Shown here piece after piece: positions 1 to 16,736 of a stretch of DNA of 64,000 nucleotides. The notes under the pieces were generated by a model. That model worked only from the letters and a program-made list of their open reading frames with translations. It had not been told where the DNA came from and searched no databases. Within the stretch, counting starts at the first letter, position 1; the number at the start of each line of letters is the position of its first letter. The DNA is taken from NCBI GenBank assembly GCA_965247095.1, contig OZ251997.1, positions 2,595,689 through 2,659,688 of the forward strand. Direction: 5' to 3'. This DNA is from Candidatus Multivorans sp. (lineage in GTDB: Bacteria > Acidobacteriota > Thermoanaerobaculia > Multivoradales > Multivoraceae). A program made the translations under genes and the position numbers.

Positions 1-184
1 CGAACCCGCCCGAAAACAGGCCGGGCCGGCCGGTCAGTACGACGGCTCTGGCATCGTCTGCGGCACGGTCGAGCATGGCATTGACGGCAGCGATCATGGG
101 CGGTCCGAAGACGTTGGCCTTGCCGTCGTCCAGGGTGACCAGGGCCACGTCGCCAACCTGCTCGTAGGTGGTCGGTTCAATCAT
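1..184 (-). CDS. Enoyl-CoA hydratase/isomerase (crotonase) family protein, N-terminal part; continues off the left edge
   Basis: Minus-strand ATG at 184-182 reads MIEPTTYEQVGDVALVTLDDGKANVFGPPMIAAVNAMLDRAADDARAVVLTGRPGLFSGGF, a typical crotonase N-terminus. It is absent from the ORF track because there is no stop in the window. Confidence 0.75.
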   Translation of the reverse strand, partial: MIEPTTYEQVGDVALVTLDDGKANVFGPPMIAAVNAMLDRAADDARAVVLTGRPGLFSGGF

Positions 185-230
185 GAATCAGCTCCCTTGG
201 TGTCTGCCCCTCGGGTCAGGGGCGCTTCAT

Positions 231-1400
231 TCAGTTTGCCACCTTGATCTCGCGGATCTTCTTGAGCGGGACCGCGGTGATCTTCTCCGTCAGCCGGTAC
301 TCGAGGTCGCCCGGGTAGACCACCCACAGATGATCGAGACCGAGGTCCTTGCTGACCGTGTGCATCGACTTGGTCGTCCGGGGGGCATCCGCGCACTTGA
401 ACTCGAATCCCCAGCGCCTGCCGCCGCGGAGCAGCATGAGGTCCAGTTCCGCGCCCCGTTGGGTGCCCCAGAAGCATGCCTGGCGCGCACCGAACGCGAT
501 CAGGGTCTGTTCCAGGGCGAAGCCCTCCCAGCTTGGACCGTAGACGGGGTGGCGGACGAGGTCGTCCATCGATTCCAGCCCCAGCAGGTGGTGGAGAATG
601 CCGGAATCGCGGAGGTACACCTTGGGCGCCTTGACGACGCGTTTGCCGACGTTCTCGAACCATGGTTGGAGCACCCGGATCATGAACGTCCCGGCCAGCA
701 GGTCGCGGTAGTGGTTCACCGCGTTGACGCTGACACCCATCGAGCGGCTGAGCGCCGACGCGTTCCAGGTCTGCGAGTGGGCGTGCGCCAGCATGGTCCA
801 GAAGCGGCCTAGCGCCTCCGGCGACACCCTCGACCCGAGTCCCGGCACATCGCGCTCCAGGAACGTGCGCGCGAACGACTCCATCCACAACATGCAGGCG
901 GCATCCGACTCCGCCAGGTAGGCCAGTGGGAAGCCGCCGCGCATCCAGAGCCGGTCCTGGTTCTCCGCTCCCACCTCGTCGAGTGAGAAGCCGCTCACGT
1001 CGGCGAACGAGATGCGCCCAGCCAGGGTCTCGGAAACGCCGCGGATCAGGTCCCAGGAGGCGCTGCCCAGGAGCAGGAAGACGGCTTTCCGCGCAGGGTC
1101 GTCGCAGATCGGACGGAGAATCTCGAACAACTCGGGTACGCGCTGAACCTCGTCGATCACGATCAGCCCCTCGCCGCTTCGAAGGAGCCGCTCCGGAGTC
1201 GCGCGGAACGCCTCGCGAACCGCAGCCACCTCCAGGTCGTAGACCGTGGAGGGTCCCGTCCACGCCGCCACGATCTGTTGGGCGAGCGTCGTCTTGCCCA
1301 CCTGCCGAGCCCCCAGGAGAGCGGTGACCGGTGACTGGGAGAGTCTCCAGAGTGTGGCGTCGAGCAGGCGCTGTCGGGCGGTAGATTGTCGCATATTCAC
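231..1400 (-). CDS. AAA+ ATPase with C-terminal DUF4143 / PD-(D/E)xK-like nuclease module (COG1373-type)
   Basis: 389-aa ORF. Walker A is GARQVGKTT and Walker B is LIVIDEVQ. The C-terminus has AELDLML...GFEFK, a D...ExK pattern. Confidence 0.85.
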   Translation of the reverse strand: MNMRQSTARQRLLDATLWRLSQSPVTALLGARQVGKTTLAQQIVAAWTGPSTVYDLEVAAVREAFRATPERLLRSGEGLIVIDEVQRVPELFEILRPICDDPARKAVFLLLGSASWDLIRGVSETLAGRISFADVSGFSLDEVGAENQDRLWMRGGFPLAYLAESDAACMLWMESFARTFLERDVPGLGSRVSPEALGRFWTMLAHAHSQTWNASALSRSMGVSVNAVNHYRDLLAGTFMIRVLQPWFENVGKRVVKAPKVYLRDSGILHHLLGLESMDDLVRHPVYGPSWEGFALEQTLIAFGARQACFWGTQRGAELDLMLLRGGRRWGFEFKCADAPRTTKSMHTVSKDLGLDHLWVVYPGDLEYRLTEKITAVPLKKIREIKVAN

Positions 1401-1500
1401 CCTCAGAGGTGAGGTTTACGACAATAAACCGAGTTGGCGGGCTTGTCCAGCGGTGCTCAGGCGGGTGCTTCGGCCTCGTGGAACTCCTTCGCCTTGGGAC

Positions 1501-2952
1501 CTATGTGCGCTTGAGGACCTTCTCGATGATCTCTCTAGCGGCCCGGCGTGACTCGGCAGACTCCGCGATGGCTTGGAACACCTTCCGATACGTGGCAACG
1601 TCCTCGGTTCTGACGTTCGTCAGCCGCGGGCGGCCACGCTGTGCCCGGAAGTGGGTGAGCCTGCGCTCGATGCTCTCTGCTCGGTCGAGCAAGCCCGCAT
1701 CCCACCCGTCTGTTGTGCGAAGTACGTCTCGAATCCGACCTAGCCGAGTAAGGTCGTGTTCAATCAACCGGCGAGCTACTTCGGCAGTCAGGTACCCAGA
1801 TCGCGCAAGCTCGTACGTCTCCTCCGAGTCCGCAATTGCCGCTGCGAACCTGCGCTCGCGCGTTCTCGTTGCTGAGGTGTTTCTGCAGCGCTCCGCCAGT
1901 CGGCGGAAGATCGCTCCCAGGTGGTTCTCCAGATTTCTCGTGTGGGGTCCGGGCTCGAAGTAGTCTCGCCGGCCGTTCGGGACGATCCTGGGGTCCAGAA
2001 TGTGTATCTCCCCTACGGCCCACCTATTGAGGCGGTCCTCCTTGAACATATGGTCGAAGACGCCTTCGCCGCCGACTTGGATGTTCCCGCATCGCGCTCT
2101 GAGTCCTCTGATACCCGCGCTCTTGGGGATTGCTCCGAGGTAAGACGTGTGGGCAAGCCACCCCGCTGCCGCTCGCTCGCGGCTGTCGATCTTGGGCACG
2201 TCGAACACTTCGAGGGCGCTGAAGGCGTCGCTTCGGCCGGCAGAGAACTCAATGCCCTCGGCATGGGGCCTGGTAACGGCATCGTCGCCGTCGATGGAGA
2301 CGTTCATCGCGTACAGCGCATCTCCAACATACTCTTCGACCATCTCGCGGAAGGGAAAGGCGGTTGAGAGAGGCACTGGACAGACCTCCGCGACGTAGCT
2401 GTGAACCCTCTGCCGGTTCAGGACAGAGCCAGCCGCGTAGCGGGCGACGCCACGGACCTCTACTTCGAAGTACTGGTCGGGCTCTTCGTCGGCATCCAGT
2501 TGTTCCACAGTGACGAAGTCACCTATTCGCTGTTCCGTGTCGGCTAGGTCGTGGTTCCTCAGACGGAGGGCGTCCCAAGTGACGCGGACAGGAGGCTGGT
2601 CCGCGCTGGCCCTGGTGGTGAAAGCGACTGCCTCTGCGAAAGCCAGACCAGCCAGGCGACCGATTCCGCGAAATCCCCTATTGCTGGCGGCGCGCTTGGT
2701 GCTTTGGCCGACCGGAATCAACGAGTCGACGGCTTCCTGGAACGTCAGGCCGGGGCCGTAGTCCCGGATGCGGATCTGGGCCTGCCGAGGGTCGAGGTGA
2801 ATCTCGACTCGGCCGGATCCTGGACTTCCTGTAGTCGCGTCCGCTGCGTTCTGGAGATACTCGCGGTAGAGCGTCAGCGGATCGTCGTACATCCCCGACG
2901 TGACCAGCCGAAGAAGGCTGTGGCCGAGCGCTGGTTCGTTGGAGCTGCTCAT
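1501..2952 (-). CDS. GHKL-superfamily ATPase (HATPase_c_3 / Hsp90-MORC-like)
   Basis: 483-aa ORF. Bergerat-fold motifs are EYLQNAADA (N-box), DYGPGL (DxGxG) and GFRGIGRLAG (G-rich lid), encoded at about nt 2749-2862. GGGGAG Shine-Dalgarno lies just upstream of the ATG at 2952. Confidence 0.8.
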   Translation of the reverse strand: MSSSNEPALGHSLLRLVTSGMYDDPLTLYREYLQNAADATTGSPGSGRVEIHLDPRQAQIRIRDYGPGLTFQEAVDSLIPVGQSTKRAASNRGFRGIGRLAGLAFAEAVAFTTRASADQPPVRVTWDALRLRNHDLADTEQRIGDFVTVEQLDADEEPDQYFEVEVRGVARYAAGSVLNRQRVHSYVAEVCPVPLSTAFPFREMVEEYVGDALYAMNVSIDGDDAVTRPHAEGIEFSAGRSDAFSALEVFDVPKIDSRERAAAGWLAHTSYLGAIPKSAGIRGLRARCGNIQVGGEGVFDHMFKEDRLNRWAVGEIHILDPRIVPNGRRDYFEPGPHTRNLENHLGAIFRRLAERCRNTSATRTRERRFAAAIADSEETYELARSGYLTAEVARRLIEHDLTRLGRIRDVLRTTDGWDAGLLDRAESIERRLTHFRAQRGRPRLTNVRTEDVATYRKVFQAIAESAESRRAAREIIEKVLKRT

Positions 2953-3061
2953 GCTCTCCCCACTTGGAGACGGCCGTTCAGGTGATGGCTAGGCCGCCGT
3001 TGAAGGGCTAGCCGTTGTACCACAAGCAACGGGCCAGTAGCTGGCAGAGATCGCTTGGAGG

Positions 3062-4702
3062 CTAGCTCGCAGCCAGGACCTTCGTCGCCCGTGAGCGGGT
3101 GGCGGCGAGCGCCTCCTCGTGGCTGAACAGACCGGCGTCCTCCACGAACTCCTCTTCGCTGGGCATGGCCGGATCGGGATTGAGGGACGGGAACAACGGC
3201 AGTACCCGGTCCCGGACAGTCCCGGGAGCATCCTTCGTGTTGAGCGCATGGAAGCGGAGGAGCTGTCGAGTGGTGGCGTCGCGGGCTCGGTCGTTACTGG
3301 CGCGCTGACACAGGGCCCGTAGCTCGCCGTCCCCTCTAGCCTGAGCGAGGAAGGCGATGAACTCCCTTCTCTCCGACTCGGACAGTCGGGCTCGCAGCGT
3401 GTCGTACTCGTCCCGTGCTCCGGACTGCTCGTACTGCTCTCGGTGGAAGATGAGCGCGTGGGGCAACTCCAGTAGCTGCAAGAACTCCTCCTGGTCCCTT
3501 CCATAGGCGCGCTCGAAGAAGCTCGGGTTGCCGCTGACTACGCCACGGGTGGCCTGCAGCATGATCTGGAAGGACCGCAGGTAGTAGCGGTTCCAGCGCC
3601 TTCCCACGTGTGAGCGGTCCTTCAGCGTCACCGGTTGGTAGCGCATCGGGAACGACCAGATGCGAACGCCGAGCTCTTCGTTCAGGCCGATGTTCAGGCG
3701 CATCCGCTCGTACAGGTCCTCCGGGGAGTCCATGAAGTTGTACAGCATGTAGTTCGACAGCGACGTGATGCCGTTGTCAGCCGCCATCCTCACCGCGGTG
3801 GTGTAGATCTTTCGTAGTCCGATGTGGTCGAAGGCGATCCGGAGGGGGCTGATGCAGATAGTGGCCATCTCGCGCAGGTACATTGGGGACTTGACGAGAA
3901 TCCTTGCGTCCACACCCTGGTTGAAGTCGACGCGGCGCTTCACCGGCCGCTGATCGTTCCGCCTCAGCTTGGCTCCCTGCTCGAAACCGAGGTCGCGAAT
4001 CTCGGCGATGACCTCCTTGTACCGGGCGGACGCAGTGATGTTGTTGTCCATGAGCACGAGGTCCTTCTTGGGCCCGTGTCTCGCGTCTACCCCGTTGACG
4101 AGGGCGGCGAGGGGCGGCATTTCGCGCTGCGCACCCTCAAGTTTCGGGACGCCGCAGAAGGAGCACTTCCGTATGCAGCCCCTTGAGGCATAGCCGAAGT
4201 AGGCGTCCCGCACCGGATAGGTGTAGTCGAGCTGCTCCAGGATGGAGTAGTCCGGCACCATCTCCTCGATTGGAGGGCCGTCAAGGTCGTCCGCACCGAA
4301 CTCGAAGTCCTCCGCGCGAAGCTGAAGGGCTCTTGCCGGCGGGCCGTCCAGCAGTCCCGCGATGAAGCGGACCCCCGCCCACCGTGGCTCCTTGAGGAAC
4401 TCCTCGTGCATGAGCGAGGCAGCGATTCCGCCGACGAAGACCCGTTCGGGCTGGTTACCAGCCGATTGAATGGCGAAGTCGATGGTTTCGGCGGTGCGCT
4501 TCCACTCGAAGCTGAAGAGCGTCGTGACGTAGACGCGGTCCCACGGCTCCAGGAAGAGGCCCTTTTCCGACACACCTTTCGCGAGCGTCACCGCGTCGCC
4601 ACGCTGCCGGTGGTAAGCCGCGATCTTCATGAGCCCGAGAGGCGGGTACTTGTTGCGGTAGCCCGGCTCCAGGAGAAGCACGCGCTTCGTCGGCTCCGTC
4701 AT
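3062..4702 (-). CDS. Radical SAM enzyme with N-terminal B12-binding-like domain (COG1032-type); substrate unknown
   Basis: 546-aa ORF. The N-terminus reads LLLEPGYRNKYPPLGLMKIAAYHRQRGD. There is a single CxxxCxxC motif, CIRKCSFC (C176/C180/C183, nt 4154-4177). No C-terminal Cys-rich SPASM/twitch region is present. Confidence 0.85.
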   Translation of the reverse strand: MTEPTKRVLLLEPGYRNKYPPLGLMKIAAYHRQRGDAVTLAKGVSEKGLFLEPWDRVYVTTLFSFEWKRTAETIDFAIQSAGNQPERVFVGGIAASLMHEEFLKEPRWAGVRFIAGLLDGPPARALQLRAEDFEFGADDLDGPPIEEMVPDYSILEQLDYTYPVRDAYFGYASRGCIRKCSFCGVPKLEGAQREMPPLAALVNGVDARHGPKKDLVLMDNNITASARYKEVIAEIRDLGFEQGAKLRRNDQRPVKRRVDFNQGVDARILVKSPMYLREMATICISPLRIAFDHIGLRKIYTTAVRMAADNGITSLSNYMLYNFMDSPEDLYERMRLNIGLNEELGVRIWSFPMRYQPVTLKDRSHVGRRWNRYYLRSFQIMLQATRGVVSGNPSFFERAYGRDQEEFLQLLELPHALIFHREQYEQSGARDEYDTLRARLSESERREFIAFLAQARGDGELRALCQRASNDRARDATTRQLLRFHALNTKDAPGTVRDRVLPLFPSLNPDPAMPSEEEFVEDAGLFSHEEALAATRSRATKVLAAS

Positions 4703-4899
4703 TTGGCCAGCATCCGGGTCGCGACCTTGCGACTCTTCCCGAACTCGAAGTCCACCATCTTCCTCGTTACCGGGTCATTCTGCAGTCGTCGGACAGCGTG
4801 ACCCTGCTCCTGCCACGCGAGGCTGATGCCGAAACCGCTCGAGACGCGCGTTAGCATATCAATGGTGCGCCGCTGGCCTCTCTCGCTCAAGCGCGTCAT
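4699..4899 (-). CDS. Possible 66-aa hypothetical protein translationally coupled to the radical SAM gene
   Basis: Internal ATG at 4899 of track ORF 4699..5091 gives MTRLSERGQRRTIDMLTRVSSGFGISLAWQEQGHAVRRLQNDPVTRKMVDFEFGKSRKVATRMLAK. Its TGA overlaps the radical SAM ATG (ATGA). No convincing RBS and no recognisable family. Confidence 0.3.
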   Translation of the reverse strand: MTRLSERGQRRTIDMLTRVSSGFGISLAWQEQGHAVRRLQNDPVTRKMVDFEFGKSRKVATRMLAK

Positions 4900-5032
4900 G
4901 GGCCGGTCTGTCTCGCTCCTCGCCGCGCCAGCGAAGACCGGGCCGCGAGGCCAACTCCAAGATGGTCGAGCTTGTGAGTATTGTCGCATCCAGCTTCGAC
5001 CTCTGCCTCTCGCTTGTGGGACACCAGTCCTA

Positions 5033-7363
5033 CTAAACCGCCTGAGATTCAGCGATATCTTCCGGAAAGTACTTCTCGACCTTCTCAACATACTGGTTGA
5101 CGAAGGCGACCTGGTCCGGGGTCAGGACACCGCGCTCAGGGTGCGCCACGATGTTGCGAATATCGTTGAGTTTCTTGATCCATTGCGTGTTTGCCTTCAT
5201 GTTGTCCCTGTTACTCGCGTCCAGCGATATCACTTCTTTGAATAGCTGCCAATTGCGGTGACATATGTCGATATAGTTTATCAGAAAGAGTTGAGATTCT
5301 TCATTGCCCTCACGTCGCCGCTCTTCCCACCGGGCCATGCATTGCTGGCGGATCGTGAGCGGGATTCCTTCCGTCCACCACTCTGTGCCCTGCGCGCCAT
5401 AGTGTCCCTTCAACGCCACGATGACGTAGTCAAAGAGCCTACGCTGTATCTTTCGCACCTTGGCGCTCGCTTCTTCTGTACCCGCTTCATCGCGGGAATC
5501 CAAGTACTGCTGCAGCCCTGGCGGCCTGAAGCTGGGGATCGTCTGGCCAATATGCGCCTCCAAACCGTAGGCCTGCCGCCGCACGGCTGTCAGGGAAGAG
5601 CCAATGCGCCTAAAGGACTGGATCTCTTGCGGTGATGCGTTCTTCAAGTAGCCGACCAAGACCTGAAGATACGGCCGGATTTCCCCGAAGGTCTCTTCTG
5701 CATTGAAGAGACTGAGGTCCACGCCGTCCGTGCGACGGACATGGTCAGCAATATCTTCAATAACGTGAAACAGAGCCCGAATGCCGTTGTTGGTACACAG
5801 ATATCCACCGGCTCGGTCGCCGAGCTCCCAGTGGCTCGCGAGCCCCGCCGCGAACATGTTGAGGCACTCCGAGAGCACCCATAGGGCCTTCCTGAGGTTC
5901 GCGTTGTAGTCGTCGGTTCTGGCCGTAGACAGGGGGCCCGGCACAACCGCACCTCTAGCGAAGGCTCCCAACAGCTTGGCAACTCTGAGCCCGTCCCGCA
6001 CCGAAGTCTGTGTCAGGCAGCGATAGTGGCTCTTCCTCTTTCCGGTGACGACCAGGCGGTCATGGAGCGGCGAGGTGCTGTCGCGGTTGAGGCGGGAGGC
6101 GATACGCGAGAGTAGGGCCTGAAACGCTTCTTCACGGTCGGAAGAGCCCCAATGAAGGTCAGCGTAAAGCTCGACCAAGAGTCCTGTGCTCACCTTGACC
6201 TGCTTGCTGTTGATATCGATGAAGAGGTTCATCTCCTCCTCGGAAGGTAGGTTTTCATAGGCCAGCACGGACAGGACGGTTGAATCCTTGTTGAATCCCT
6301 CTTGTGCTCGCGCATAGGCGTAGCCATAGAGCCTATGCTGGCCGTCGATGATCCAGGCCGAGGCGTAGTTCGGTGGCAGATAGAGTGTGCCCCAGGCCTC
6401 GTCACCGTAGGTCTGCTTCGCATCGAAACGCATCCGAGTTTTCTTGCGGTTCTTCAAGTTGACAACGATATTTGTCGGAAACCTGCCGCCGCCATTGATG
6501 TATTGTGCGATCTTCTTCAGCCGGCGCGGCTGGAGCATGCGCTGGTATGTTTCCAAATTGTCGATGTCCCGGCTTGCCTTGTGGCCAACATAGGCGATCT
6601 TCAAGAGCTCGCCAGGGCTGATGAGGAAAGTGTAGAACGTCTCGCCGCCCATCCTGCCGCGGGTCGCTACGACTTGTCGGACTAGGCCGGGGATCTTCTG
6701 GCCGCCGAACATGTGCCCCAAGAACTGGTAGCGGGCCGCGCGTTTGAGGTGCTTCACGAGCTTCGCATAGTAGTCGAGTTCCCCGTCCGTGACGACCGCA
6801 ATCTCCGCCTTCTCGCACTTCGCAAGGTCCGCATCGCTCCATGAGACATTTCGTGTGGCGATGATAAATCTGACTTTGAGCCCCGACTGCCGGCCGTAGG
6901 CCTTGCGGACCGACTTGAGCAAGTTGCCCCGGATTGCCGTGATGTTCTCGATCAGCGGCGCCATGCGCTTCGTGCCCGGGGTGCCACGCTGCGTGCACTC
7001 GACGATGATGACGGTTTCGTCGTCCTTGGCGAACACATCGATCTGACGTCCTGGCGGGCCATCTTCGACGGCGATCGTGAACTTGCGGCCTTTGTTCATT
7101 TCATCGAAGCCCATCTGAGCTAGGATGCACCAAACTTCGTCCTCAAGCTGCTCGTCAGCAGGCTTCTCCTGGGCCATTCGCGTTGACTTGGCGTTCTTTC
7201 TGACCGTCCGCCAACCGTTAGCTGCTTCCAGCTTGACCTTTTGAGCGACAAGCTCCTTCGACGAACCCGAGACAGTCTTATAGATATCCGGCTTTTTCCG
7301 GCTCCTGAGCTCGGATGTGATCTCATCGCCGGATAAGAGGGGGTCTAGGTATTGGTCGGTCAT
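5033..7363 (-). CDS. DGQHR-domain (DndB/DpdB ParB-like) protein with C-terminal HEPN-like R-x4-H motif
   Basis: 776-aa ORF. It contains WIIDGQHRLYGY (nt 6332-6346), FPTNIVVNL, and LFIDINSKQVKV. The C-terminus reads KKLNDIRNIVAHPERG (RNIVAH at nt 5141-5158). AGGGAG RBS lies upstream of the ATG at 7363. GC is visibly lower than in flanking DNA. Confidence 0.85.
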   Translation of the reverse strand: MTDQYLDPLLSGDEITSELRSRKKPDIYKTVSGSSKELVAQKVKLEAANGWRTVRKNAKSTRMAQEKPADEQLEDEVWCILAQMGFDEMNKGRKFTIAVEDGPPGRQIDVFAKDDETVIIVECTQRGTPGTKRMAPLIENITAIRGNLLKSVRKAYGRQSGLKVRFIIATRNVSWSDADLAKCEKAEIAVVTDGELDYYAKLVKHLKRAARYQFLGHMFGGQKIPGLVRQVVATRGRMGGETFYTFLISPGELLKIAYVGHKASRDIDNLETYQRMLQPRRLKKIAQYINGGGRFPTNIVVNLKNRKKTRMRFDAKQTYGDEAWGTLYLPPNYASAWIIDGQHRLYGYAYARAQEGFNKDSTVLSVLAYENLPSEEEMNLFIDINSKQVKVSTGLLVELYADLHWGSSDREEAFQALLSRIASRLNRDSTSPLHDRLVVTGKRKSHYRCLTQTSVRDGLRVAKLLGAFARGAVVPGPLSTARTDDYNANLRKALWVLSECLNMFAAGLASHWELGDRAGGYLCTNNGIRALFHVIEDIADHVRRTDGVDLSLFNAEETFGEIRPYLQVLVGYLKNASPQEIQSFRRIGSSLTAVRRQAYGLEAHIGQTIPSFRPPGLQQYLDSRDEAGTEEASAKVRKIQRRLFDYVIVALKGHYGAQGTEWWTEGIPLTIRQQCMARWEERRREGNEESQLFLINYIDICHRNWQLFKEVISLDASNRDNMKANTQWIKKLNDIRNIVAHPERGVLTPDQVAFVNQYVEKVEKYFPEDIAESQAV

Positions 7364-7577
7364 GCCGCTGCTCCCTGGTGAGTCGACTATCTCGCATCAT
7401 GTCGCTGGAGGCGACATTCGTGGACCTGTGCCTCAGGGTGTTCCGCGGACGCAGTACCGGAAGGCGAAGGAAGGGCGTTGAAGCTGGACGTGAGTTTCGG
7501 GAGGCTAGCACTTCGGTTGCTGGGAGTCAGATCGGCCCGGAACCTGTCAACGACATTGACACAGCGGGGTTCTGGAT

Positions 7578-8576
7578 TTACTGAGTCGTCTCTGCAGTCT
7601 CGTTGTCGGGCTTGTTGATCCAGACGGCCTGGGGCAGTGGCGTATGCATCGGTTGGCCGCCGACGAATCGTTCGGGGGAGCTTTCCCAGGCGGCGCTCAG
7701 CGTGCGTTGGCGCTGCTCGATCACGGCTTGCGCCCGGCCGTAGTGGACGGTCTCGGGGGTCAGCATGGCGATGCCGGCATGGCGGTGTTCCGTGTTGTAC
7801 CAGGGGAAGAAGGACCTGCAGTAGTCGGTCGCGGCGTCCTGGTTGGGGAAGCGGCTGGGGAAGTCGGGGTGGTACTTGAGGGTCTTGAACTGTGCTTCGG
7901 AGTAGGGGTTGTCGTCGCTGACCCGCGGGCGGCCCAGGGACCGGTTCACGCCGAGGCGGGCGAGCAGTTGGGCGGTACCCTGGCTGGTCATGGGGGCGCC
8001 TCGATCGGAATGCAGGGTCAGGACATGGGGCTTGACGCCGTGCTTGAGGCAGGTCTCCTCGATGAGCCTTTGGGCGAGCGCGGAGTTCTCGCGGTCGGCG
8101 ACCATCCAGCCGACCGCGTAGCGGCTTAGGAGGTCAAGCAGGACGTAGAGGTAGTAGTAGGTCCAGGTCTGCGGTCCGAGCAGCCTGGTGATGTCCCACG
8201 ACCAGACCTGGTTGGGCGCGACAGCGACCAGCTCCGGCTTGGCGTACGACGGATGGACGCGCTGGTTGCGGCGGTCCCTCACGGGGTGGTTCGCTTCGAG
8301 GATGCGGTACATCGTGCGCTCCGAGCACAGGTAGCGGCCCTCGTCGAGCAGGGTGGCCACCACTTCTCCCGGCGAACGATCGACGAAACGCGGCGACGCA
8401 AGCGTGGCCTCGACCCGTTTCCGCTCGATCTGGCTCAGTGCCCGGGCAGGCGTGGGGCGGGGCTGCCGTCGCCCGGGAGCGGGCCTCGCACGACGATAGA
8501 AGGTCGATCGCGATACGCCCAGCGCCCGGCACGCCGGCGCGACGCCGACCTGCCGGGCCAGGGACCTTGCCGCCAT
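7578..8576 (-). CDS. IS3-family transposase OrfB (rve DDE integrase core)
   Basis: Contains NQVWSWDITRL, HSDRGAPMTS and DNPYSEAQFKTLKY. The ATG at 8576 overlaps the orfA stop (TGATG). The frame stays open upstream, consistent with an OrfAB fusion. Confidence 0.85.
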   Translation of the reverse strand: MAARSLARQVGVAPACRALGVSRSTFYRRARPAPGRRQPRPTPARALSQIERKRVEATLASPRFVDRSPGEVVATLLDEGRYLCSERTMYRILEANHPVRDRRNQRVHPSYAKPELVAVAPNQVWSWDITRLLGPQTWTYYYLYVLLDLLSRYAVGWMVADRENSALAQRLIEETCLKHGVKPHVLTLHSDRGAPMTSQGTAQLLARLGVNRSLGRPRVSDDNPYSEAQFKTLKYHPDFPSRFPNQDAATDYCRSFFPWYNTEHRHAGIAMLTPETVHYGRAQAVIEQRQRTLSAAWESSPERFVGGQPMHTPLPQAVWINKPDNETAETTQ

Positions 8577-9061
8577 CAGCAGTCCTTCCCGTCTTCGAGG
8601 CTGAATCCCAGCAGCCCTGCAACTTTTCCCTGGACGTCCAGGATCGTGTGCGCGGCGGCGACTTCCCTCTCGAGACGCTTGACCTTCGCTTCCAGCCGCT
8701 TCACCTTCGGCATCAGAGGGTTGGCCTCGTTCGGCTTGCGGCCCCGCTTCTTCGGCCTCAGACCGGAAAGCGCGCCCTCGCGCCGCGCCTTGCGCCAGTT
8801 GGCCAGATGGGAGCTGTACAGACCCTCTCGCCGCAGCAGCCGACCCACCTCGCCGCGGTGGGTGCATCGGTCCGCTTCCTCCAGAATCCGCAGCCGGTAC
8901 TCCGCCGTGAACTGCCGCCTGGTCGGTCTCGCCAGCACTTCCGGGTCGGGAACCGCCCCGGCGGGCGCCGCGCCGGCCGCGGGGGCCTCGTCGCTACGCT
9001 CCTCAACCCCCGCGGCCGGGAGCTCCGAGCCGCCGCCAAACCTCTGCTCTCGTCTTGACAT
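8576..9061 (-). CDS. IS3-family transposase OrfA (HTH)
   Basis: Sequence starts MSRREQRF and contains RRQFTAEYRLRILEEADRC and LLRREGLYSSHLANWRKAR plus a leucine-zipper-like tail. I preferred the internal ATG at 9061 of track ORF 8576..9091. Confidence 0.8.
   Translation of the reverse strand: MSRREQRFGGGSELPAAGVEERSDEAPAAGAAPAGAVPDPEVLARPTRRQFTAEYRLRILEEADRCTHRGEVGRLLRREGLYSSHLANWRKARREGALSGLRPKKRGRKPNEANPLMPKVKRLEAKVKRLEREVAAAHTILDVQGKVAGLLGFSLEDGKDC
8623..8630 (-). other. Candidate -1 programmed frameshift site (G GGA AAA G) for an OrfAB fusion
   Basis: Minus strand reads CAG GGA AAA GTT in the orfA frame. A -1 slip continues as GKSCRAAGIQ..., which is the orfB frame seen in track ORF 7578..8867. 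Confidence 0.35.
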
Positions 9062-9183
9062 TGATCCTCCTTGCCAACGTGTGCCCTCCACTATTCAACG
9101 GGATGGCCGCTGTGTCACGTACGTTGGCAGAGAGGGGCCGTAGGGGCGCTGACGCGTGGTTCGGAACGTGTTGGCTTCCGCCC

Positions 9184-10380
9184 TCAGAGCATTCGCGCGG
9201 CGATCCAGGGCAGGGCGACCGCGGTGCCCAGCACGCTGCCGAGGTTGCTCAGCACGACGACCAGGAGCACGCGTGTAAGGCGGTTGGACCAGAAGCCGCG
9301 CGCGGAACTGAGGCTGTCGGCGAGGTTCTCCATGTCCGCCACCAGGGGCCGGCGGAGCAGCGCCTGGACCAGTCCCGCGACCCAGCCGGCGGCGATCAGC
9401 GGGTTCAAGCTGGTCAGGGGCGCGGCGGCGAAGGCCGAGGCGATGGTCAGCGGATGCCCCAGGGCGATCGCGGCCCCTAGGGCGGACAAGCTGCCGTTGA
9501 TCAGGATCCAGAGGTAGATCGACTCGACCGACCGCTCGCGATCGCCGGTCAGGAAGCCGTAGGCCAGGAGCGCGATGATCGCGATCGGCAACGCCCACTT
9601 GACGATGCGCGGCCAGAGCGGCGGCTCGGGCAGTCGCTCGAGTTCCTCCAGATCGCAGGGCGAGCCCGCGAGGCTCGTGATGCCGGGCACGTGCCCGGCG
9701 CCGACCACGGCCACCGTGCGCGGACCTGCCGACTGGCGCAGCTTCTCGGCCATGTACGCGTCCCGTTCGTCGATCAGGGTGCCCTTGACGCTGGGCAATG
9801 CCTCGGCGAGGGCGGACACCAGGTCGCTCAGGTTGCCGCTGTCGCGGAGCTGCTCGATGTCCTCTTCCTTCAGGTCGTCGCCGACGAAGGCGCTGCCGGC
9901 CAACTGGGTCATCACCTTCGTCCGCTGCCAGAAGCCGAGTGAGGCCCAGGTGCGCTTCAGCGAGATCTGGATGTCGCGGTCGATCAGTTCGAGGCGTGCG
10001 CCGCGTTCCCGGGCCCGGGCGATCGCCTCTCTCATCTCGGCGCCGGGCTCGATGCCGAAGCGCTGGGCGATGCGCCGCTGGAAGGAGTGCATCAGGAACG
10101 AGCTGAGCAGCAGCGCCGCCTTGCCCTCGCGCAGGACCTGGAAGATGTCCAGCTTGCGCCACGACTCCTGGTCCTCCAGGTTGCGGTAGCGGGCCTCGCA
10201 GAGTTCGACGCAGACGGTGTCGGGCTCGAGCGCCTCGATCGCCTCCTTCGTGTCGCGCACGCTCTGCGGCGAGACGTGCGCGGTGCCGACCAGGAAGACC
10301 TCCCGCTCGTCGAGTTCGAGTCGCTGCACCGAGGCGGGCAGGTCGGGGGGCGCCGGTTGGCGCTCGGCTTCGGACATCAT
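9184..10380 (-). CDS. TraB/GumN family protein
   Basis: Contains VFLVGTAHVSPQSVRD, VCVELCEARY and ERDAYMAEKL, plus C-terminal transmembrane segments. The start was moved to the MMSEAERQ ATG at 10380. Confidence 0.85.
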   Translation of the reverse strand: MMSEAERQPAPPDLPASVQRLELDEREVFLVGTAHVSPQSVRDTKEAIEALEPDTVCVELCEARYRNLEDQESWRKLDIFQVLREGKAALLLSSFLMHSFQRRIAQRFGIEPGAEMREAIARARERGARLELIDRDIQISLKRTWASLGFWQRTKVMTQLAGSAFVGDDLKEEDIEQLRDSGNLSDLVSALAEALPSVKGTLIDERDAYMAEKLRQSAGPRTVAVVGAGHVPGITSLAGSPCDLEELERLPEPPLWPRIVKWALPIAIIALLAYGFLTGDRERSVESIYLWILINGSLSALGAAIALGHPLTIASAFAAAPLTSLNPLIAAGWVAGLVQALLRRPLVADMENLADSLSSARGFWSNRLTRVLLVVVLSNLGSVLGTAVALPWIAARML

Positions 10381-10486
10381 GGCAGCGCGGAGCGTAGCCG
10401 ACGGCCGGCTGGAGGCGAAACCGCGGCGGCGTCGAGTACGATGTTGTGTTCCAGGTCGTGATGGCAGGGCTGATGGGAGGATTGGA

Positions 10487-12016
10487 ATGGAAGTGATGAG
10501 AGACCATTGCCCCGTGGCGGCACGGGCGCTGGCGATGGGCGCCCTGGTGTTCCTTGCCTGCACCGCGCCCGACGCCGATGCCCCCGTCGCGGATGCCGGC
10601 GCCGGCCCGCGGCCGAACATCGTTCTCATCCTTGCCGACGATCTCGGCTACGCCGACATCGGCATCTACGGCAGCGAGGTGATCTCGACCCCGAACATCG
10701 ACGCGCTGGCCGCGAGCGGCGTTCGCTTCACGGCGGGCTACGTCAGCCATCCGGTGTGCAGTCCGTCGCGGGCCGGGCTGATGACCGGGCGCTACCAGCA
10801 GCGCCACGGCTGGGAGTTCAACCCGGCCGGCCGGGATGTCGGCGCCGGCATGAGTCTCGAGGAGACGACCCTGGCCGACCGGATGAGGGCTCTGGGGTAC
10901 CGGACCGGCATGATCGGCAAGTGGCACCTGGGCCGCCAGGCGCCCCATCATCCGGTGAGCCGCGGCTTCGACGAGTACTTCGGCGTGCTCGAAGGCGGCA
11001 GCATCTTCATCGACTCCAGCCTGCCGGGCGTGGAGTACGGCTCGATCCGCGGCGAAGACGGGCCGACGGTCCGCCGGAACAAGGTGCTGCGGGGGTTCGA
11101 GGAAGAGAAGGTCGACCGCTACCTGACCGACGTGTTCACGGAGGAAGCGACAAGCTTCATCGAGCGCAGCGCGAGCGGTGAAGAACCCTTCTTCCTCTAC
11201 CTCAGCCACACGACGCCGCACACGCCGCTCCAGGCCACGGCCGAGTACCTGGACGGCTACCGCCACATCGAAGATCAGCGCACCCGCGTCTACGCGGCCA
11301 TGGTCGCGTCGCTCGACGAGAGCGTGCGGCAGGTGGTCGAGACGCTCAAGGCACAGGGCGTGTACGAGAACACGATGATCGTCTTCGCCAGCGACAACGG
11401 CTGCGCCGGCTACATTCACGCCGCCTGCTCGAACGCGCCGCTCTTCGGTTTCAAGCGCTACCACCACGAAGGCGGCGTGCGGATTCCCTTCATCATCAGT
11501 TGGCCGGAAGGAATCGAGGGAGGGCGGACGTTCAATCAACCGGTGATCACCCTCGACTTCACGGCGACCTTCACGGCTGCGGCGGGCCAGGAAGCAAAGG
11601 CGGGCGACAGCGTGAACCTGCTGCCGTACATGACCGGCGAGGCGGACGGCGCGCCGCACGAGTACCTCTACTGGCGGGCCGGCGCCAGCGTCGCGATCCG
11701 CGACGCCCAGTACAAGCTGATCAAGCTGAACCGCACCGAGTTCCGGCCCGACGATCTGCGCGGGGACGGCCGTTTGCAGCCGCCCGAAGGCGGCTGGCCC
11801 ACGGATTCGCCCCACGGGCAGGCCACCCTGCTCTACGACCTGGAAGCCGACATCGGCGAGTTGAACAACCTGGCGGCGGAGCAGCCGGAGGTCGTCGCCC
11901 GTCTCGAAGCCGAGTTGGATGCGTGGCGCGCCACGTTGCTGAGCGAGCCGATCCTGCCGGGTGTGCGTTCCACGATCACCGAGATCGATGGTGAGTGGGT
12001 CCAATTGGTATTCTGA
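10487..12016 (+). CDS. Cys-type (formylglycine) sulfatase
   Basis: Contains PNIVLILADDLGYADIG and the CSPSRAGLMTGR (C-x-P-x-R) motif, with a signal-like N-terminus. GGGAGG RBS lies before the ATG at 10487. Confidence 0.9.
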   Translation: MEVMRDHCPVAARALAMGALVFLACTAPDADAPVADAGAGPRPNIVLILADDLGYADIGIYGSEVISTPNIDALAASGVRFTAGYVSHPVCSPSRAGLMTGRYQQRHGWEFNPAGRDVGAGMSLEETTLADRMRALGYRTGMIGKWHLGRQAPHHPVSRGFDEYFGVLEGGSIFIDSSLPGVEYGSIRGEDGPTVRRNKVLRGFEEEKVDRYLTDVFTEEATSFIERSASGEEPFFLYLSHTTPHTPLQATAEYLDGYRHIEDQRTRVYAAMVASLDESVRQVVETLKAQGVYENTMIVFASDNGCAGYIHAACSNAPLFGFKRYHHEGGVRIPFIISWPEGIEGGRTFNQPVITLDFTATFTAAAGQEAKAGDSVNLLPYMTGEADGAPHEYLYWRAGASVAIRDAQYKLIKLNRTEFRPDDLRGDGRLQPPEGGWPTDSPHGQATLLYDLEADIGELNNLAAEQPEVVARLEAELDAWRATLLSEPILPGVRSTITEIDGEWVQLVF

Positions 12017-12078
12017 GCCCGGCTGCTGACGTGCGCCGTGCCGCCCTCACCGCGGCGAACGATGCGGGCTGCTGAAGC

Positions 12079-13881
12079 ATGAGCGGTACACCCAAGGACG
12101 CTGAGCGCGGCCCTGCCGACGGTCCAGGTGCTGTGATGCGCCGCCGCCTCGAACAGGTACTGGCCGCCGGCCTGCAGTCGCCCATCTTCCGCTGGGAGAC
12201 CTGGCGGACGTTGTGGCCGCTGCGCCGCCGGGTTCAGGCGGCGCTGCTGGCCGTCCTCGCGGTGGCGGCGTTCTCGGCGTGGCGGGTTCAGCAGAAGGTC
12301 GGACAGGCGCGGCTCGAACTCGGTCTGGCGGAAGCGGCGACTGCCGGCGAGGGATTCGAGCGACTCGCCGAGCGGTCTCCAGGCCTGCTCAGCCTGGCCG
12401 CCCGGCACGCGGCCGGGGAGGGCCGCTGGCGCGAAGTGGCGGCGTTGTACGAGGACCATGCCGAACACCTGCCGCCGGCACTGCTGGCCGCGGCCGAGGT
12501 GGAACTCGGTGTGAATCGCGCCGAGGAAGCTGGAGCAGAATCGGCCGCGGACGAACCGCCGCCGGCGTCTGCGTTCGAGCGGCGTCTGCGGCGGGCACAG
12601 GCGGTCGACGCCTCGGGCGTGCAGCAACTGCTCTTCGACCGGCGGGGCCGGCCATTGGGATCGATCGGCGACGACCGTTCGTTGACGCTGGTAGAGGATC
12701 TGCCGGCCGGCCTGGTGCCGGTCGAGTTGGCGACCCATCTGCTGCCTTCCGCCCTCCAGCCGCCGGGTCTTGCCGCCGCCGGACCGGGGGCGATGAGCAG
12801 GTCCGCCGGCGCGCGAGCCCTGCGGCTGACGATCGACCGGGCCTGGAGCGAGGCGGCCGACACGGCGCTGGGCAGGGAAGAGGGCGCGATCGCGATCGTG
12901 GAGATCCCGTCGGGCGCGGTCCTGGCCGCGGTGAGCAACCGCGGTCGAAGCCGCCGGTGGCGGTCGAACGGCGACAGCGTCCTCGATCCGCGCGAGCCGG
13001 CGTCGATCGCCAAGCTGATCACCACGACGGCGGCGATGCGGGCCGGTCTCGACCCCGACCAGGAGATCGCCGACATGACCTGCCGCGGCTCGGTGCTGAT
13101 GGACGGTCAGCGGCTCTACTGCAGCGCGATCAACGGCCGGCTCCGGGGGCTCTCCGCAGCGATGGCCAGTAGCTGCAACGTCGCCTTCGCCAAGCTCGCG
13201 ATGGATGTCGGCGACCGGGCGCTGGTCGAAGAGTACGAACGCTACGGCTTCGTCATCGGCGGCAGGAGTAGCGAGGCGGTGCCGCGGAACGCCGTCGGTG
13301 TGGTGCATGAGTACCGTCACCCGGGCAAGCAGCTCGGCGATCTCTCGATCGGCCTGGAGGAGGCTTCGATCACACCGTTGGGGGCGGCCCTGTTCGCCGC
13401 CACCCTCTCGGACGGCCGCCGGCGCGAGCCGAGCTTCGTTCTGCAGGCGGACGGACTTCTGGGCATCTCGCCACGGACACCGGTCGGCGACGGTCCGCGC
13501 GAGGGCGTCGAGGTTCTCGACCCGTCCTGGCTGCCGGTGCTGCACGAGTCGATGCGCGCGGTCGTGTCTCCGGGCGGCTCGGCGAACCGGGTGGCGCCGA
13601 AGCGTCTCCGGGTGGCGATGAAGACGGGCACGGCGCGCGATCCGGACAAGCCGTTCCACGTGAACTACGCCGGCTTCTTCCCCTCCGACGAGAGCCAGCC
13701 GCCCCGATACGCCTTCGCGGTCAGGGTCACCGGCCAGCCGACGTCGGCACGGGTTCGCCGCGCCGGGTACGCCGTCACGTTCCGTCTGCTGCGGGCGCTC
13801 GACAGGTTGGTCGGCGAAGAGATCGAGACAGCGTCCCGGGTTCCGCAACGGCTGGCGGCAGCGACCGGAGCGAGCAAGTGA
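12079..13881 (+). CDS. Penicillin-binding protein, transpeptidase domain (PBP2-like)
   Basis: All three PBP motifs are present: SIAK (SxxK), SCN (SxN) and KTGT. There is an N-terminal membrane anchor. Confidence 0.8.
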   Translation: MSGTPKDAERGPADGPGAVMRRRLEQVLAAGLQSPIFRWETWRTLWPLRRRVQAALLAVLAVAAFSAWRVQQKVGQARLELGLAEAATAGEGFERLAERSPGLLSLAARHAAGEGRWREVAALYEDHAEHLPPALLAAAEVELGVNRAEEAGAESAADEPPPASAFERRLRRAQAVDASGVQQLLFDRRGRPLGSIGDDRSLTLVEDLPAGLVPVELATHLLPSALQPPGLAAAGPGAMSRSAGARALRLTIDRAWSEAADTALGREEGAIAIVEIPSGAVLAAVSNRGRSRRWRSNGDSVLDPREPASIAKLITTTAAMRAGLDPDQEIADMTCRGSVLMDGQRLYCSAINGRLRGLSAAMASSCNVAFAKLAMDVGDRALVEEYERYGFVIGGRSSEAVPRNAVGVVHEYRHPGKQLGDLSIGLEEASITPLGAALFAATLSDGRRREPSFVLQADGLLGISPRTPVGDGPREGVEVLDPSWLPVLHESMRAVVSPGGSANRVAPKRLRVAMKTGTARDPDKPFHVNYAGFFPSDESQPPRYAFAVRVTGQPTSARVRRAGYAVTFRLLRALDRLVGEEIETASRVPQRLAAATGASK

Positions 13882-16736
13882 CAGCGAGCGCGGGCGGCGC
13901 AAAACCGCCCGCACGCCGGCGCTACCGACCGGCGATCGGCCCCAGGCTGAAACCGCTCCTGTGGGTGGTCTTCGGACTGTTCGCTCTGCTGGCGGTGAAC
14001 TCGTTCTACCTCTCCGGCGTTCGCGTTGCCGAGGCGGCAACCGGCGCGACCTACCAGAACTGGTTCTACATCTCGATGTTTCTGCTTCACTTGGCGGTGG
14101 GGGGATTGTTCGTGGCGCCGGTGATCTGGTTCGGTCTGGCGCACATGCGGAACGCGCGCAATCGACCCAACCGGCGCGCGGTGAAGGTGGGGTATGCGCT
14201 GTTCGGGACGGCGCTCGTGCTCCTTCTGAGCGGCATCGTGCTGACGCGGATCGAGGGTGTGATCACGGTGAACGACCCGGCGGTCCGCGGCGTGGCCTAC
14301 TGGCTGCACGTCCTGGCGCCCCTGGTAGCGGCCTGGCTGTTCGTGCTGCACCGGCTCGCCGGCAAGCGAATCAACTGGCGGATCGGTGCGCGCGTCGCGG
14401 CCGCCGCCGTGGTTCTGGTCGGCGTGGCGCTGGTGCTGCAGTTCCAGGATCCGCGGGCGTGGAACGTGGAAGGTCCGGAGTCGGGAGAGCAGTACTTCTT
14501 CCCGGCCCTGGCGCGCACCGCGAGCGGCGGGTTCATCCCCGAGCGGGTGTTGATGAACGACGCCTACTGCGTGGACTGCCATGCCGACATCCACGCTCGC
14601 TGGACCTACAGCGCCCACCGCTTCAGCTCCTTCAACAACCCCGCCTACAGTTTCTCCGTCCAGGAGACCCGCGACAAGGCGTACGAGCGTTCGGGCGACG
14701 TGCAGGCGTCCCGCTTCTGCGCCGGCTGCCACGATCCGGTGGTGTTCTTCTCGGGCGCCTTCGACGACCCGGAGTTCGACGTCGAGCAGCCGGCCGCGCA
14801 CGCCGGCATCACCTGCACGTCCTGCCACGCGATTACGCACATCAACAGTCCCCGCGGCAACGCCGACTACACGATCGAGGAGCCCCAGCACTACCCGTTT
14901 GCCTTCAGCGACTCAGGGTTCCTCAAGTTCGTCAACCATCAACTGGTCAAGGCGAAACCGGAACTGCACAAACGGACCTTCCTCAAGCCCCTGCACACGA
15001 CGGCGGAGTTCTGCGGCGCCTGCCACAAGGTCCACCTGCCCGAGGAGTTGAATCACTACAAGTTCCTGCGCGGCCAGAACCACTACGACTCGCACCTTCT
15101 CTCCGGCGTCTCGGGCCACGGCGTGGCGAGCTTCTACTACCCGCCCGAGGCCGAGCCGAACTGCAACGGCTGCCACATGGACCTGCTGCCGTCGGACGAC
15201 TTCGGTTCTCGCCGCCACCCGGAGAGCGACCAGCCTGATGTCACCCAGGTTCACGATCACCTGTTCCCGTCCGCGAACACCGGCATCCCCCATCTGCTCG
15301 ACTTCCCGGACTGGGTGATCGAGGCCCACCGCGAGTTCAACGAGGGCGCCGTCGACGTGGACATCTTCGGCGTCAAGCCGGGCGGCGCGATCGAGGACGA
15401 GCTGATCGCGCCGGTGCGCCCCGAGATACCGGCCCTCGAGGCGGGCGAGGACTATCTGCTGGAGGTCGTTGTACGCACCGTTGCCTTGGGGCATCACCTG
15501 ACCCAGGGCACCGTTGACTCCAACCAGCTCTGGCTGGACATCGCGGTGCGCGACGACAGCGGCCGGCTGGTGGGGCGGAGCGGCGGTTTGGGCGAGGGCA
15601 ACCGGGTCGACCCCTGGTCGCACTTCATCAACGTCTACATGCTCGACCGCGAGGGCGCGCGGATCGATCGCCGCAACGCCGAGGACATCTTCGTGCCGCT
15701 GTACGACCATCAGATCCCGCCGGGGGCGGGCGACGTGGTCCACTACCGGATGGAAGTACCGCCAGGGGCGGCCACCGGCAGCCTGACGGTCGAGGCCGCG
15801 CTCCGCTACCGCAAGTTCGACACGACGTACCTGCGCTACATCTACGGCGAGGACACGGTGAACGAACTGCCGATTCTCGACCTGGCCCGGGACACGGTGA
15901 CCTTCCCGGTGGCGGGCGCCTCCGCCCCTGGGCACGCGGGCGTCTCGCCCGCATCCGGTCCGGAGGTCCGCCAACCCGCCAAGCCTCTCTGGCAGCGCTG
16001 GAACGACTACGGCATCGGCCTGCTGCGCAAGGGCGGCACCGGTCGCGGCGAACTGCGGCAGGCGATCGAAGCCTTCACCCGGGTCGAGGAGTTGGGCCGT
16101 CCCGACGGACCGCTCAACCTCGCCCGCGTCTACCTGGCGCAGGGCACCGTCACCGACGACGCGATCGCGGCGCTCGAGCGGGCCGCCACCTTCGACCCGG
16201 CGGCGCCGGCGTGGTCGGTGGCCTGGTTCACCGGGCTGGTCAACTTCCAGAACGGCGCCGTCGACGAGGCGATCGCCAACTTCCGCTCGATCCTCGACGC
16301 CGACAGCGAGGAGATGCGACGCCGCGGCTTCGACTTCAGCCGCGACGTGCGGCTGCAGAACCAGCTCGGTCTGGCTCTGTTCGAGCGCGCCAAGCGCGAG
16401 CGGGGCCCTGCCCGCGCCGAGGCGCGCGCGGCGCGGCTCAACGAGGCGCGGGAGTCGTTCGAGAGCGCTCTGGTCATCGACCCGGAGAACGTGACCGCCC
16501 ACTACAACCTGGGTCTGATCTACGGCCAGCTTGGCGATCGCGAGGGCGCCGCCCGGCACCAGGAACTTCATGCGAAGTACAAGCCTGACGACAACGCCCG
16601 GGACCGGGCGATCGCCACGGCCAGACGCGCCGACGCGGCGGCCGATCACGCGGCGGAGGCGATCGTGATCTACGACCTGCACCGGCCCGAGCGCTTCGAA
16701 GGCGACCGGGCCGGGGTCGCCGGAGCGGGCGGTTGA
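13878..16736 (+). CDS. Membrane-anchored multihaem c-type cytochrome with C-terminal TPR repeats
   Basis: Five CxxCH motifs (CVDCH, CAGCH, CTSCH, CGACH, CNGCH), N-terminal transmembrane helices and a TPR-like C-terminus. The GTG start overlaps the PBP stop (GTGA). Confidence 0.8.
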   Translation: MTASAGGAKPPARRRYRPAIGPRLKPLLWVVFGLFALLAVNSFYLSGVRVAEAATGATYQNWFYISMFLLHLAVGGLFVAPVIWFGLAHMRNARNRPNRRAVKVGYALFGTALVLLLSGIVLTRIEGVITVNDPAVRGVAYWLHVLAPLVAAWLFVLHRLAGKRINWRIGARVAAAAVVLVGVALVLQFQDPRAWNVEGPESGEQYFFPALARTASGGFIPERVLMNDAYCVDCHADIHARWTYSAHRFSSFNNPAYSFSVQETRDKAYERSGDVQASRFCAGCHDPVVFFSGAFDDPEFDVEQPAAHAGITCTSCHAITHINSPRGNADYTIEEPQHYPFAFSDSGFLKFVNHQLVKAKPELHKRTFLKPLHTTAEFCGACHKVHLPEELNHYKFLRGQNHYDSHLLSGVSGHGVASFYYPPEAEPNCNGCHMDLLPSDDFGSRRHPESDQPDVTQVHDHLFPSANTGIPHLLDFPDWVIEAHREFNEGAVDVDIFGVKPGGAIEDELIAPVRPEIPALEAGEDYLLEVVVRTVALGHHLTQGTVDSNQLWLDIAVRDDSGRLVGRSGGLGEGNRVDPWSHFINVYMLDREGARIDRRNAEDIFVPLYDHQIPPGAGDVVHYRMEVPPGAATGSLTVEAALRYRKFDTTYLRYIYGEDTVNELPILDLARDTVTFPVAGASAPGHAGVSPASGPEVRQPAKPLWQRWNDYGIGLLRKGGTGRGELRQAIEAFTRVEELGRPDGPLNLARVYLAQGTVTDDAIAALERAATFDPAAPAWSVAWFTGLVNFQNGAVDEAIANFRSILDADSEEMRRRGFDFSRDVRLQNQLGLALFERAKRERGPARAEARAARLNEARESFESALVIDPENVTAHYNLGLIYGQLGDREGAARHQELHAKYKPDDNARDRAIATARRADAAADHAAEAIVIYDLHRPERFEGDRAGVAGAGG

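Follow-up and report, generated by a model that had tools for sequence, protein, structure and literature searches.

What does a bacterium gain from a single protein that joins a restriction-endonuclease fold, a ParB-like domain and a HEPN ribonuclease-type domain? The question is raised by a long gene in a 64,000-nucleotide stretch of contig OZ251997.1 from Candidatus Multivorans sp.; this whole stretch is called the window here, and coordinates refer to it. The gene, which we call the DGQHR gene, encodes a protein of 776 amino acids, and our analysis supports its reading as a fusion of restriction-endonuclease-fold, DGQHR (ParB-like) and HEPN RNase-type domains. It is the first gene of a three-gene island, followed by the genes for a radical S-adenosylmethionine (SAM) protein and a GHKL ATPase. 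The long DGQHR protein is most likely the attacking subunit of a defence island. On balance, we consider it probable that it is a three-domain restriction-type effector whose modification partner is a marking module formed by the radical SAM and GHKL proteins. Its parts are as follows.

5033..7363, minus strand: open reading frame of the restriction-endonuclease-fold, DGQHR and HEPN fusion, 776 codons plus stop
6674..7231, minus strand: N-terminal PD-(D/E)xK (restriction-endonuclease-fold) domain, residues about 45-230
6989..7048, minus strand: nuclease-fold active-site hairpin RQIDVFAKDDETVIIVECTQ, residues 106-125, with D109, D114, E122 and C123 conserved, T124, and R106
5750..6667, minus strand: central DGQHR domain (ParB/Srx superfamily, DndB/DpdB-like), residues 233-538
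6332-6346, minus strand: DGQHR motif, residues 340-344
5447..5749, minus strand: helical linker region, residues 539-639, all-helical in the AlphaFold2 model
5036..5446, minus strand: C-terminal Swt1/Abi2-type HEPN domain, residues 640-776
5141..5158, minus strand: HEPN R-x4-H motif R736-N-I-V-A-H741, residues 736-741, within WIKKLNDIRNIVAHPERG

A first-pass annotation, made from the letters of the DNA, had proposed the 776-residue length, the division into nuclease fold, DGQHR domain and HEPN region, and the position of RNIVAH at nt 5141-5158. The length agrees with the minus-strand reading frame, the motif position is exact (residues 736-741), and each of the three domain calls is backed by independent tests. 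The linker at residues 539-639 is the least conserved part of the protein and has no family match. A phmmer comparison of the whole protein with the PDB matched nothing.

How unusual is this arrangement? A word-indexed search returned more than 2100 relatives; the best 120 share 67-76% of their residues with the query along its full length. When representatives of 50%-identity clusters were searched exhaustively with HMMER, 2588 proteins reached E <= 1e-3 and 486 reached E <= 1e-30. Nearly all family members are 750-790 amino acids long and match in a single stretch from about residue 45 to about residue 760. This near-uniform length and end-to-end match across the 2588 representatives indicate that the three-part architecture is a stable and ancient arrangement, not a one-off fusion. 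A genome scan gave 80 loci with a family member, spread over numerous bacterial phyla and also archaea, with Methanoperedens, Methanoregula and Thermoplasmata among them. Residue frequencies given below for the wider family come from 127 diverse full-length representatives, and counts for close homologues come from 119 sequences of the query's clade.

The central domain, recognised from the start as a ParB-like DGQHR domain, lies above the curated threshold for TIGR03187 (DGQHR): residues 233-538 match it with E 3.2e-55 and 187.8 bits, against a cutoff of 58.85, over model positions 1-275 of 276. D340-R344, Y273-Q274-R275 and R281 are invariant in 41 diverse sequences. The domain also matches Pfam DndB (E 1.3e-12) and the DpdB model of PADLOC. 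Is the protein then a DndB or a DpdB? The equivalog thresholds of both are missed (DndB, TIGR03233, 12.7 vs 328 bits; DpdB, NF041060, 61.7 vs 300 bits), and no dnd or dpd genes stand beside the DGQHR gene, whose neighbours are the radical SAM protein, the GHKL ATPase and an AAA ATPase. Because the thresholds are missed and dnd and dpd genes are absent nearby, the 776-amino-acid protein has a DndB-type domain and is itself neither DndB nor DpdB. DndB of Dnd phosphorothioation and DpdB of the Dpd 7-deazaguanine system share the central domain (TIGR03187 and Pfam DndB, with partial DpdB matches), but they are about half the size and lack the nuclease and HEPN domains that this protein has. The earlier remark that a typical DndB is about half as long agrees with the DndB models, which are 338-355 positions long.

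The N-terminal domain retains D109 in 95%, D114 in 90%, E122 in 87% and C123 in 96% of the wider family. At position 124, lysine (71%) prevails over threonine (13%) and arginine (8%). With the conserved D and E, the lysine majority at this position gives the family a consensus that reads as a canonical D...E-x-K site. The alpha-beta-beta-beta-alpha-beta core was found, in line with the resemblance to a restriction-endonuclease-fold D...ExK core noted in the first-pass annotation, and the region showed no sign of a non-nuclease fold. When N-terminal segments of the family were scanned singly, Pfam Hjc matched 19 of 39, Card1_endonuc 17 of 39 and NERD 8 of 39; the query's own N-terminal segment matched no family in the same scan. 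The family profile also weakly finds Can2 and Hjc in the PDB, with QIDVF...VECK aligned on their catalytic strands. We regard the PD-(D/E)xK fold assignment as secure.

What has become of the active site in the window's protein? The threonine seen where lysine is expected is exact: the query has T124 against the lysine that prevails among its relatives. The D-E-T combination recurs in about 113 of the 119 close homologues, and T124 co-occurs with R106. This T clade still conserves D109, D114, E122 and C123, a pattern that speaks against mere decay of the active site. The T124 domain may still cut DNA, with R106 standing in for the lost lysine; alternatively, it may have turned into a DNA-binding module. 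R106 faces position 124 in the hairpin, and its co-occurrence with T124 would suit the first possibility, but E-x-K forms often have K at position 106 too, so R106 is not a clean compensation. K113 was also considered as a substitute for K124 and was rejected on hairpin geometry, since on our reading of the sequence register it sits at the turn end, far from D109 and E122.

The C-terminal region was proposed to end in a HEPN-type R-x4-H motif. Residues 545-776 match Pfam HEPN_Swt1 (PF18731) with E 1.6e-5 and 25.6 bits (22.6 bits for the full protein; cutoff 27.5). Among diverse family segments, 18 of 38 match the same model at E < 0.01, the best at 1.8e-6, and a precomputed PF18731 assignment stands on 4 of the best 120 homologues listed. 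On this stretch PADLOC matches PDC-M34B (E 3.9e-5), with faint hits to DzbB and CARF-HEPN as well. In the PDB, the family profile finds its best match in HepS, a HEPN protein, through the stretch L-N-x-I-R-N-K-x-A-H (E 0.037).

Conservation and geometry point the same way. In HEPN proteins the R-x4-6-H motif, with a polar residue after R, straddles the junction between core helix 3 and the loop that leads to helix 4 (PMC3710099). The two structure models of the analysis have predicted local distance difference test scores (pLDDT) of 93.0 and 92.6. The AlphaFold2 model of residues 545-776 (pLDDT 93) is all-helical. It places R736 at the end of helix 727-740 and H741 at the opening of a loop, with the next helix at 749-765, which is the canonical helix/loop position. 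Across the wider family, R736 is present in 83% and H741 in 80%, where some of the remainder are alignment shifts, and residue 737, after the arginine, is N in 50% and mostly K or R otherwise. Both R736 and H741 are present together in 117 of the 119 close homologues, so the loss of conservation that would have spoken against the motif was not observed; they are also kept across the 85 loci described below, in both partner groups. The protein holds three R-x4-6-H matches, compared with about 3.5 expected from its arginine and histidine composition, and only 736-741 is conserved at both residues. The R-x4-H motif alone is therefore not beyond chance; it is conservation, profile matches and predicted structure that make the HEPN site real. 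Foldseek returned no significant match for the C-terminal model. Sequence and motif geometry give the HEPN assignment good support, and fold search gives it moderate support.

Which genes accompany the fusion? In the window the two partners follow it on the same strand.

3062..4702, minus strand: divergent radical SAM protein, 546 amino acids, with C176-x3-C180-x2-C183; Pfam Radical_SAM E 1.4e-3, below threshold
1501..2952, minus strand: GHKL ATPase (HATPase_c_3, MutL/MORC/Hsp90-like), 483 amino acids; HATPase_c E 1.2e-4

The CX3CX2C motif is invariant in 43 homologues of the radical SAM protein (27-95% identity), which have no other conserved cysteine. RefSeq names homologues 'radical SAM protein'. 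The GHKL protein matches the NCBIfam HSP90-family model (E 1.5e-11) and sacsin and MutL N-terminal models, all far below their cutoffs; its homologues carry PF13589 and come after the radical SAM gene. The island, from 2 to 8 kb, has about 60% G+C, compared with about 68% in the rest of the window.

We compared neighbourhoods at 85 loci, recording the residue at position 124 and the neighbouring genes. They fall out as follows.

E-x-T form (with R106; includes the window's gene): radical SAM neighbour, mostly with GHKL, 38 loci
E-x-K form: D12-class (Dam-like) or MT-A70 adenine DNA methyltransferase within 1.5 kb, 33 loci
E-x-K form: radical SAM neighbour, 3 loci

The methyltransferase genes of the E-x-K loci often overlap the stop or start codon. 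The order long DGQHR, radical SAM, GHKL recurs in genomic settings that are unrelated to one another, among them a metagenomic chromosome, a conjugative element of Algicella marina, Mesorhizobium, and Novosphingobium and Agrobacterium plasmids. At some loci a short DGQHR protein (about 335 amino acids) lies ahead of the radical SAM gene. In a neighbour-joining tree T124 forms one deep clade plus one further deep branch, and the radical SAM pairing arose in at least three separate places, an argument that either partner type can functionally stand in for the other. The three E-x-K loci with a radical SAM neighbour (L051, L054 and L056) sit inside the methyltransferase-paired clade, and their radical SAM proteins share only 27-40% identity with the one in the window. 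The partner may have been switched independently at these loci, or they may hold a different subfamily of radical SAM proteins. A PIN-like gene (PIN_8) and a second HATPase_c_3 ATPase are found repeatedly beside the cluster (L004, on plasmid pNL1, 12492-16301; L005, 3329-6651; L003, 4328-7775), sometimes also with a separate short DGQHR protein.

Radical SAM and GHKL genes are also found together where the long DGQHR protein is missing. At L086, L087 and L088 (about 3000-10200 in each) the pair is 72% and about 50% identical to the window's pair and is preceded by two weakly ParB-like proteins (about 335-348 amino acids), a 147-amino-acid protein and a SNF2 helicase. These loci seem to represent a second and apparently common type of system built on the same radical SAM/GHKL core. 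The pairing of this core with differing partners fits a conserved core with exchangeable effector modules.

How might such a system work? When a nuclease-fold protein immediately adjoins a Dam-type methyltransferase, the arrangement is the standard one for restriction-modification, and it is the pairing of the sister-clade E-x-K protein with a Dam-type or MT-A70 methyltransferase that leads us to read the window's protein as a restriction component. Type II restriction-modification with a Dam-type methyltransferase is thus matched by the sister clade at its 33 loci beside D12-class or MT-A70 methyltransferases. The window's clade differs in that the methyltransferase's place is taken by radical SAM and GHKL genes, at times joined by a short DGQHR gene, and in that threonine replaces the nuclease lysine. 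From gene position alone, the radical SAM and GHKL proteins would take over the methyltransferase's role as a DNA-marking module, and the repeated swap of one for the other suggests an equivalent self-marking function. DndB, DpdB, SspE and GmrSD provide the analogy for nucleotide-dependent DNA binding and mark reading; on that analogy the DGQHR domain would bind DNA, with a probable dependence on a nucleotide, and recognise whether it is modified. Where the DNA carries no mark, the protein would then act by way of its nuclease domains, with the HEPN domain acting as an RNase. Characterised HEPN enzymes need dimerisation for their RNase action.

Several observations weigh against a restriction-type effector with a marking partner. 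The catalytic D...(D/E)-x-K triad is incomplete in the query, which has D109 and E122 but T124 for K, and the catalytic lysine is missing from the query's whole clade. The query's own HEPN_Swt1 score stays below the Pfam cutoff (25.6 vs 27.5 bits). Gene position is the only pointer to DNA modification by the radical SAM enzyme, which could make a small molecule instead. The link between K or T at position 124 and the partner type is essentially a single evolutionary event and is statistically non-independent; because it comes down to one deep split in the neighbour-joining tree, we do not count it as independent support. Finally, this is no recognised defence system, because PADLOC has no model for the radical SAM partner and gives the GHKL protein only faint TmtA matches (E about 0.008).

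A more far-reaching version of the proposal can be put forward only tentatively. Here the radical SAM and GHKL proteins and a ParB-like partner would form a previously undescribed DNA-marking module that has replaced Dam-type methylation at least three times in the family, and the restriction-endonuclease/DGQHR/HEPN protein would read the mark and attack both DNA and RNA of unmarked invaders. If this is true, the combinations with SNF2 helicases elsewhere would put the radical SAM/GHKL core at the centre of a defence-system family that is widespread and still uncharacterised.

Could a mark on the DNA license attack rather than prevent it? In SspE and GmrSD, DGQHR/DUF262 domains fused to nucleases work as modification-dependent sensors. 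If our protein were of this type, it would recognise the mark set on host DNA by the radical SAM module, and the mark, together with hydrolysis of nucleoside triphosphates (NTPs), would license nicking or RNA cleavage and would not block it. GmrSD, BrxU and SspE share with our protein a ParB-like NTPase-type domain joined to a nuclease, and they act by the modification state of DNA. They carry a C-terminal DUF1524 (HNH-type) domain, whereas the 776-amino-acid protein has an N-terminal PD-(D/E)xK and a C-terminal HEPN domain, and the SspE and GmrSD models of PADLOC do not match it. The sister clade overlaps or adjoins ordinary Dam-type or MT-A70 methyltransferases, the classical methylation-protected layout, and we judge a sensor of this kind to be unlikely.

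A second alternative makes the HEPN domain the sole active effector, an abortive-infection RNase toxin, with the T124 fold a dead DNA-binding or oligomerisation module and the radical SAM and GHKL proteins serving to regulate or activate it. The clade-wide loss of the canonical lysine, beside R736 and H741 in 117 of 119 close homologues, is what this account would predict, and HEPN domains in restriction-modification loci have been proposed as suicide effectors (PMC3710099; PMC10853773). However, the continued conservation of D109, D114, E122 and C123 in the T clade is unexpected for a decaying site, and the radical SAM/GHKL pair is also found with a SNF2 helicase and weakly ParB-like proteins where there is no HEPN domain. 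These points leave the toxin an improbable explanation of the locus.

Might the protein instead be a regulator like DndB, repressing or limiting DNA modification, with nuclease-like domains that only bind nucleic acid? DndB has been described as an ATP-modulated regulator (PMC10853773), the central domain matches the Pfam DndB family, and some homologues are annotated as DndB. The protein nevertheless scores far below the equivalog thresholds of both DndB and DpdB and has no dnd or dpd genes alongside. Catalytic-type residues are conserved in both flanking domains, and at some loci a separate short DGQHR protein would fill the DndB-like role. We think a regulatory function of this kind very unlikely. 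That the HEPN call is false, and the C-terminus a generic helical domain with a chance R-x4-H, would fit the three occurrences against 3.5 expected, the empty Foldseek result and the sub-threshold Pfam score of the query, yet is extremely improbable given the conservation, profile matches and predicted structure set out above.

The restriction-type reading builds on a kind of protein that is not new. A 2013 survey of HEPN domains lists, for the Swt1-like group, a fusion to 'ParB (Saro_3948), mostly active' (PMC3710099), and a 2013 review of defence systems notes frequent fusions of the ParB-like DUF262/DGQHR domain with HNH, PD-(D/E)xK and HEPN domains (PMC3632139). The architecture (ParB-like, nuclease and HEPN) is thus of a kind already catalogued in 2013. 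The ParB-Swt1-HEPN fusions of Anantharaman et al. agree with ours in joining a ParB-like domain to an Abi2/Swt1-group HEPN domain, with R-x4-H mostly intact, in a restriction-modification or defence setting. They are given in a table or a sentence only, which describes neither the three-domain layout nor the partner genes and does not mention an E-x-K/E-x-T split. A reappraisal of Dnd published in 2024 discusses whether DndB may be an NTPase or nuclease, and a back-up effector role for HEPN (PMC10853773). A homologue 62% identical to the window's protein is encoded on plasmid pNL1 of Novosphingobium aromaticivorans, and a tblastn search with the HEPN segment found pNL1 as the sole match among Novosphingobium plasmids; that this homologue is Saro_3948 could not be confirmed.

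What is new is the context: one bacterial and archaeal family exists in two forms, a canonical site with an adenine methyltransferase and a changed site with radical SAM and GHKL. In the literature searched, whose coverage was incomplete, we found no description of the radical SAM/GHKL pairing, the alternation of methyltransferase and radical SAM, or the K-to-T switch. The interest of the locus therefore lies more in the possible radical-SAM-based marking that its neighbourhood implies than in the HEPN motif. If the radical SAM module does mark DNA, it would represent a new chemistry for self/non-self discrimination in prokaryotic immunity, and the family would offer a natural matched pair of systems for studying marking chemistry. 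The family is also a test case for cooperation between a DNase-fold and an RNase domain in one restriction protein.

The window's copy has a history of its own. At the DNA level, the flanks of the DGQHR gene (window 1-4691 and 9186-14000) share 89-94% identity with two Candidatus Multivorans (Acidobacteriota) genomes (L011 and L035), whereas the gene itself (window 5099-7364) is just 70-72% identical to the same two, with divergence even over all domains. Judged by these identities and this evenness, a different allele evidently took the place of the whole DGQHR gene, and the radical SAM and GHKL genes were retained. At the junction of the exchanged gene lies an IS3 element, listed here with the remaining neighbour.

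231-1400, minus strand: AAA_14 plus DUF4143 ATPase; PADLOC candidate defence family PDC-S01, E 6e-80
7578-9091, minus strand: IS3-family transposase pair (rve; HTH_Tnp_1 in orfA), directly upstream of the DGQHR gene

No promoters or terminators were detected at 4500-7700, a scan that is uninformative for a high-G+C organism. The gap between the DGQHR and radical SAM genes (4703-5032) is 330 nt, compared with about 105 nt at loci L001-L003, and it holds only a 130-amino-acid open reading frame with no family match. The AAA_14/DUF4143 ATPase adjoins the three genes only here and at the two Multivorans loci. In the Multivorans loci the position of the IS3 element is occupied by a different sequence.

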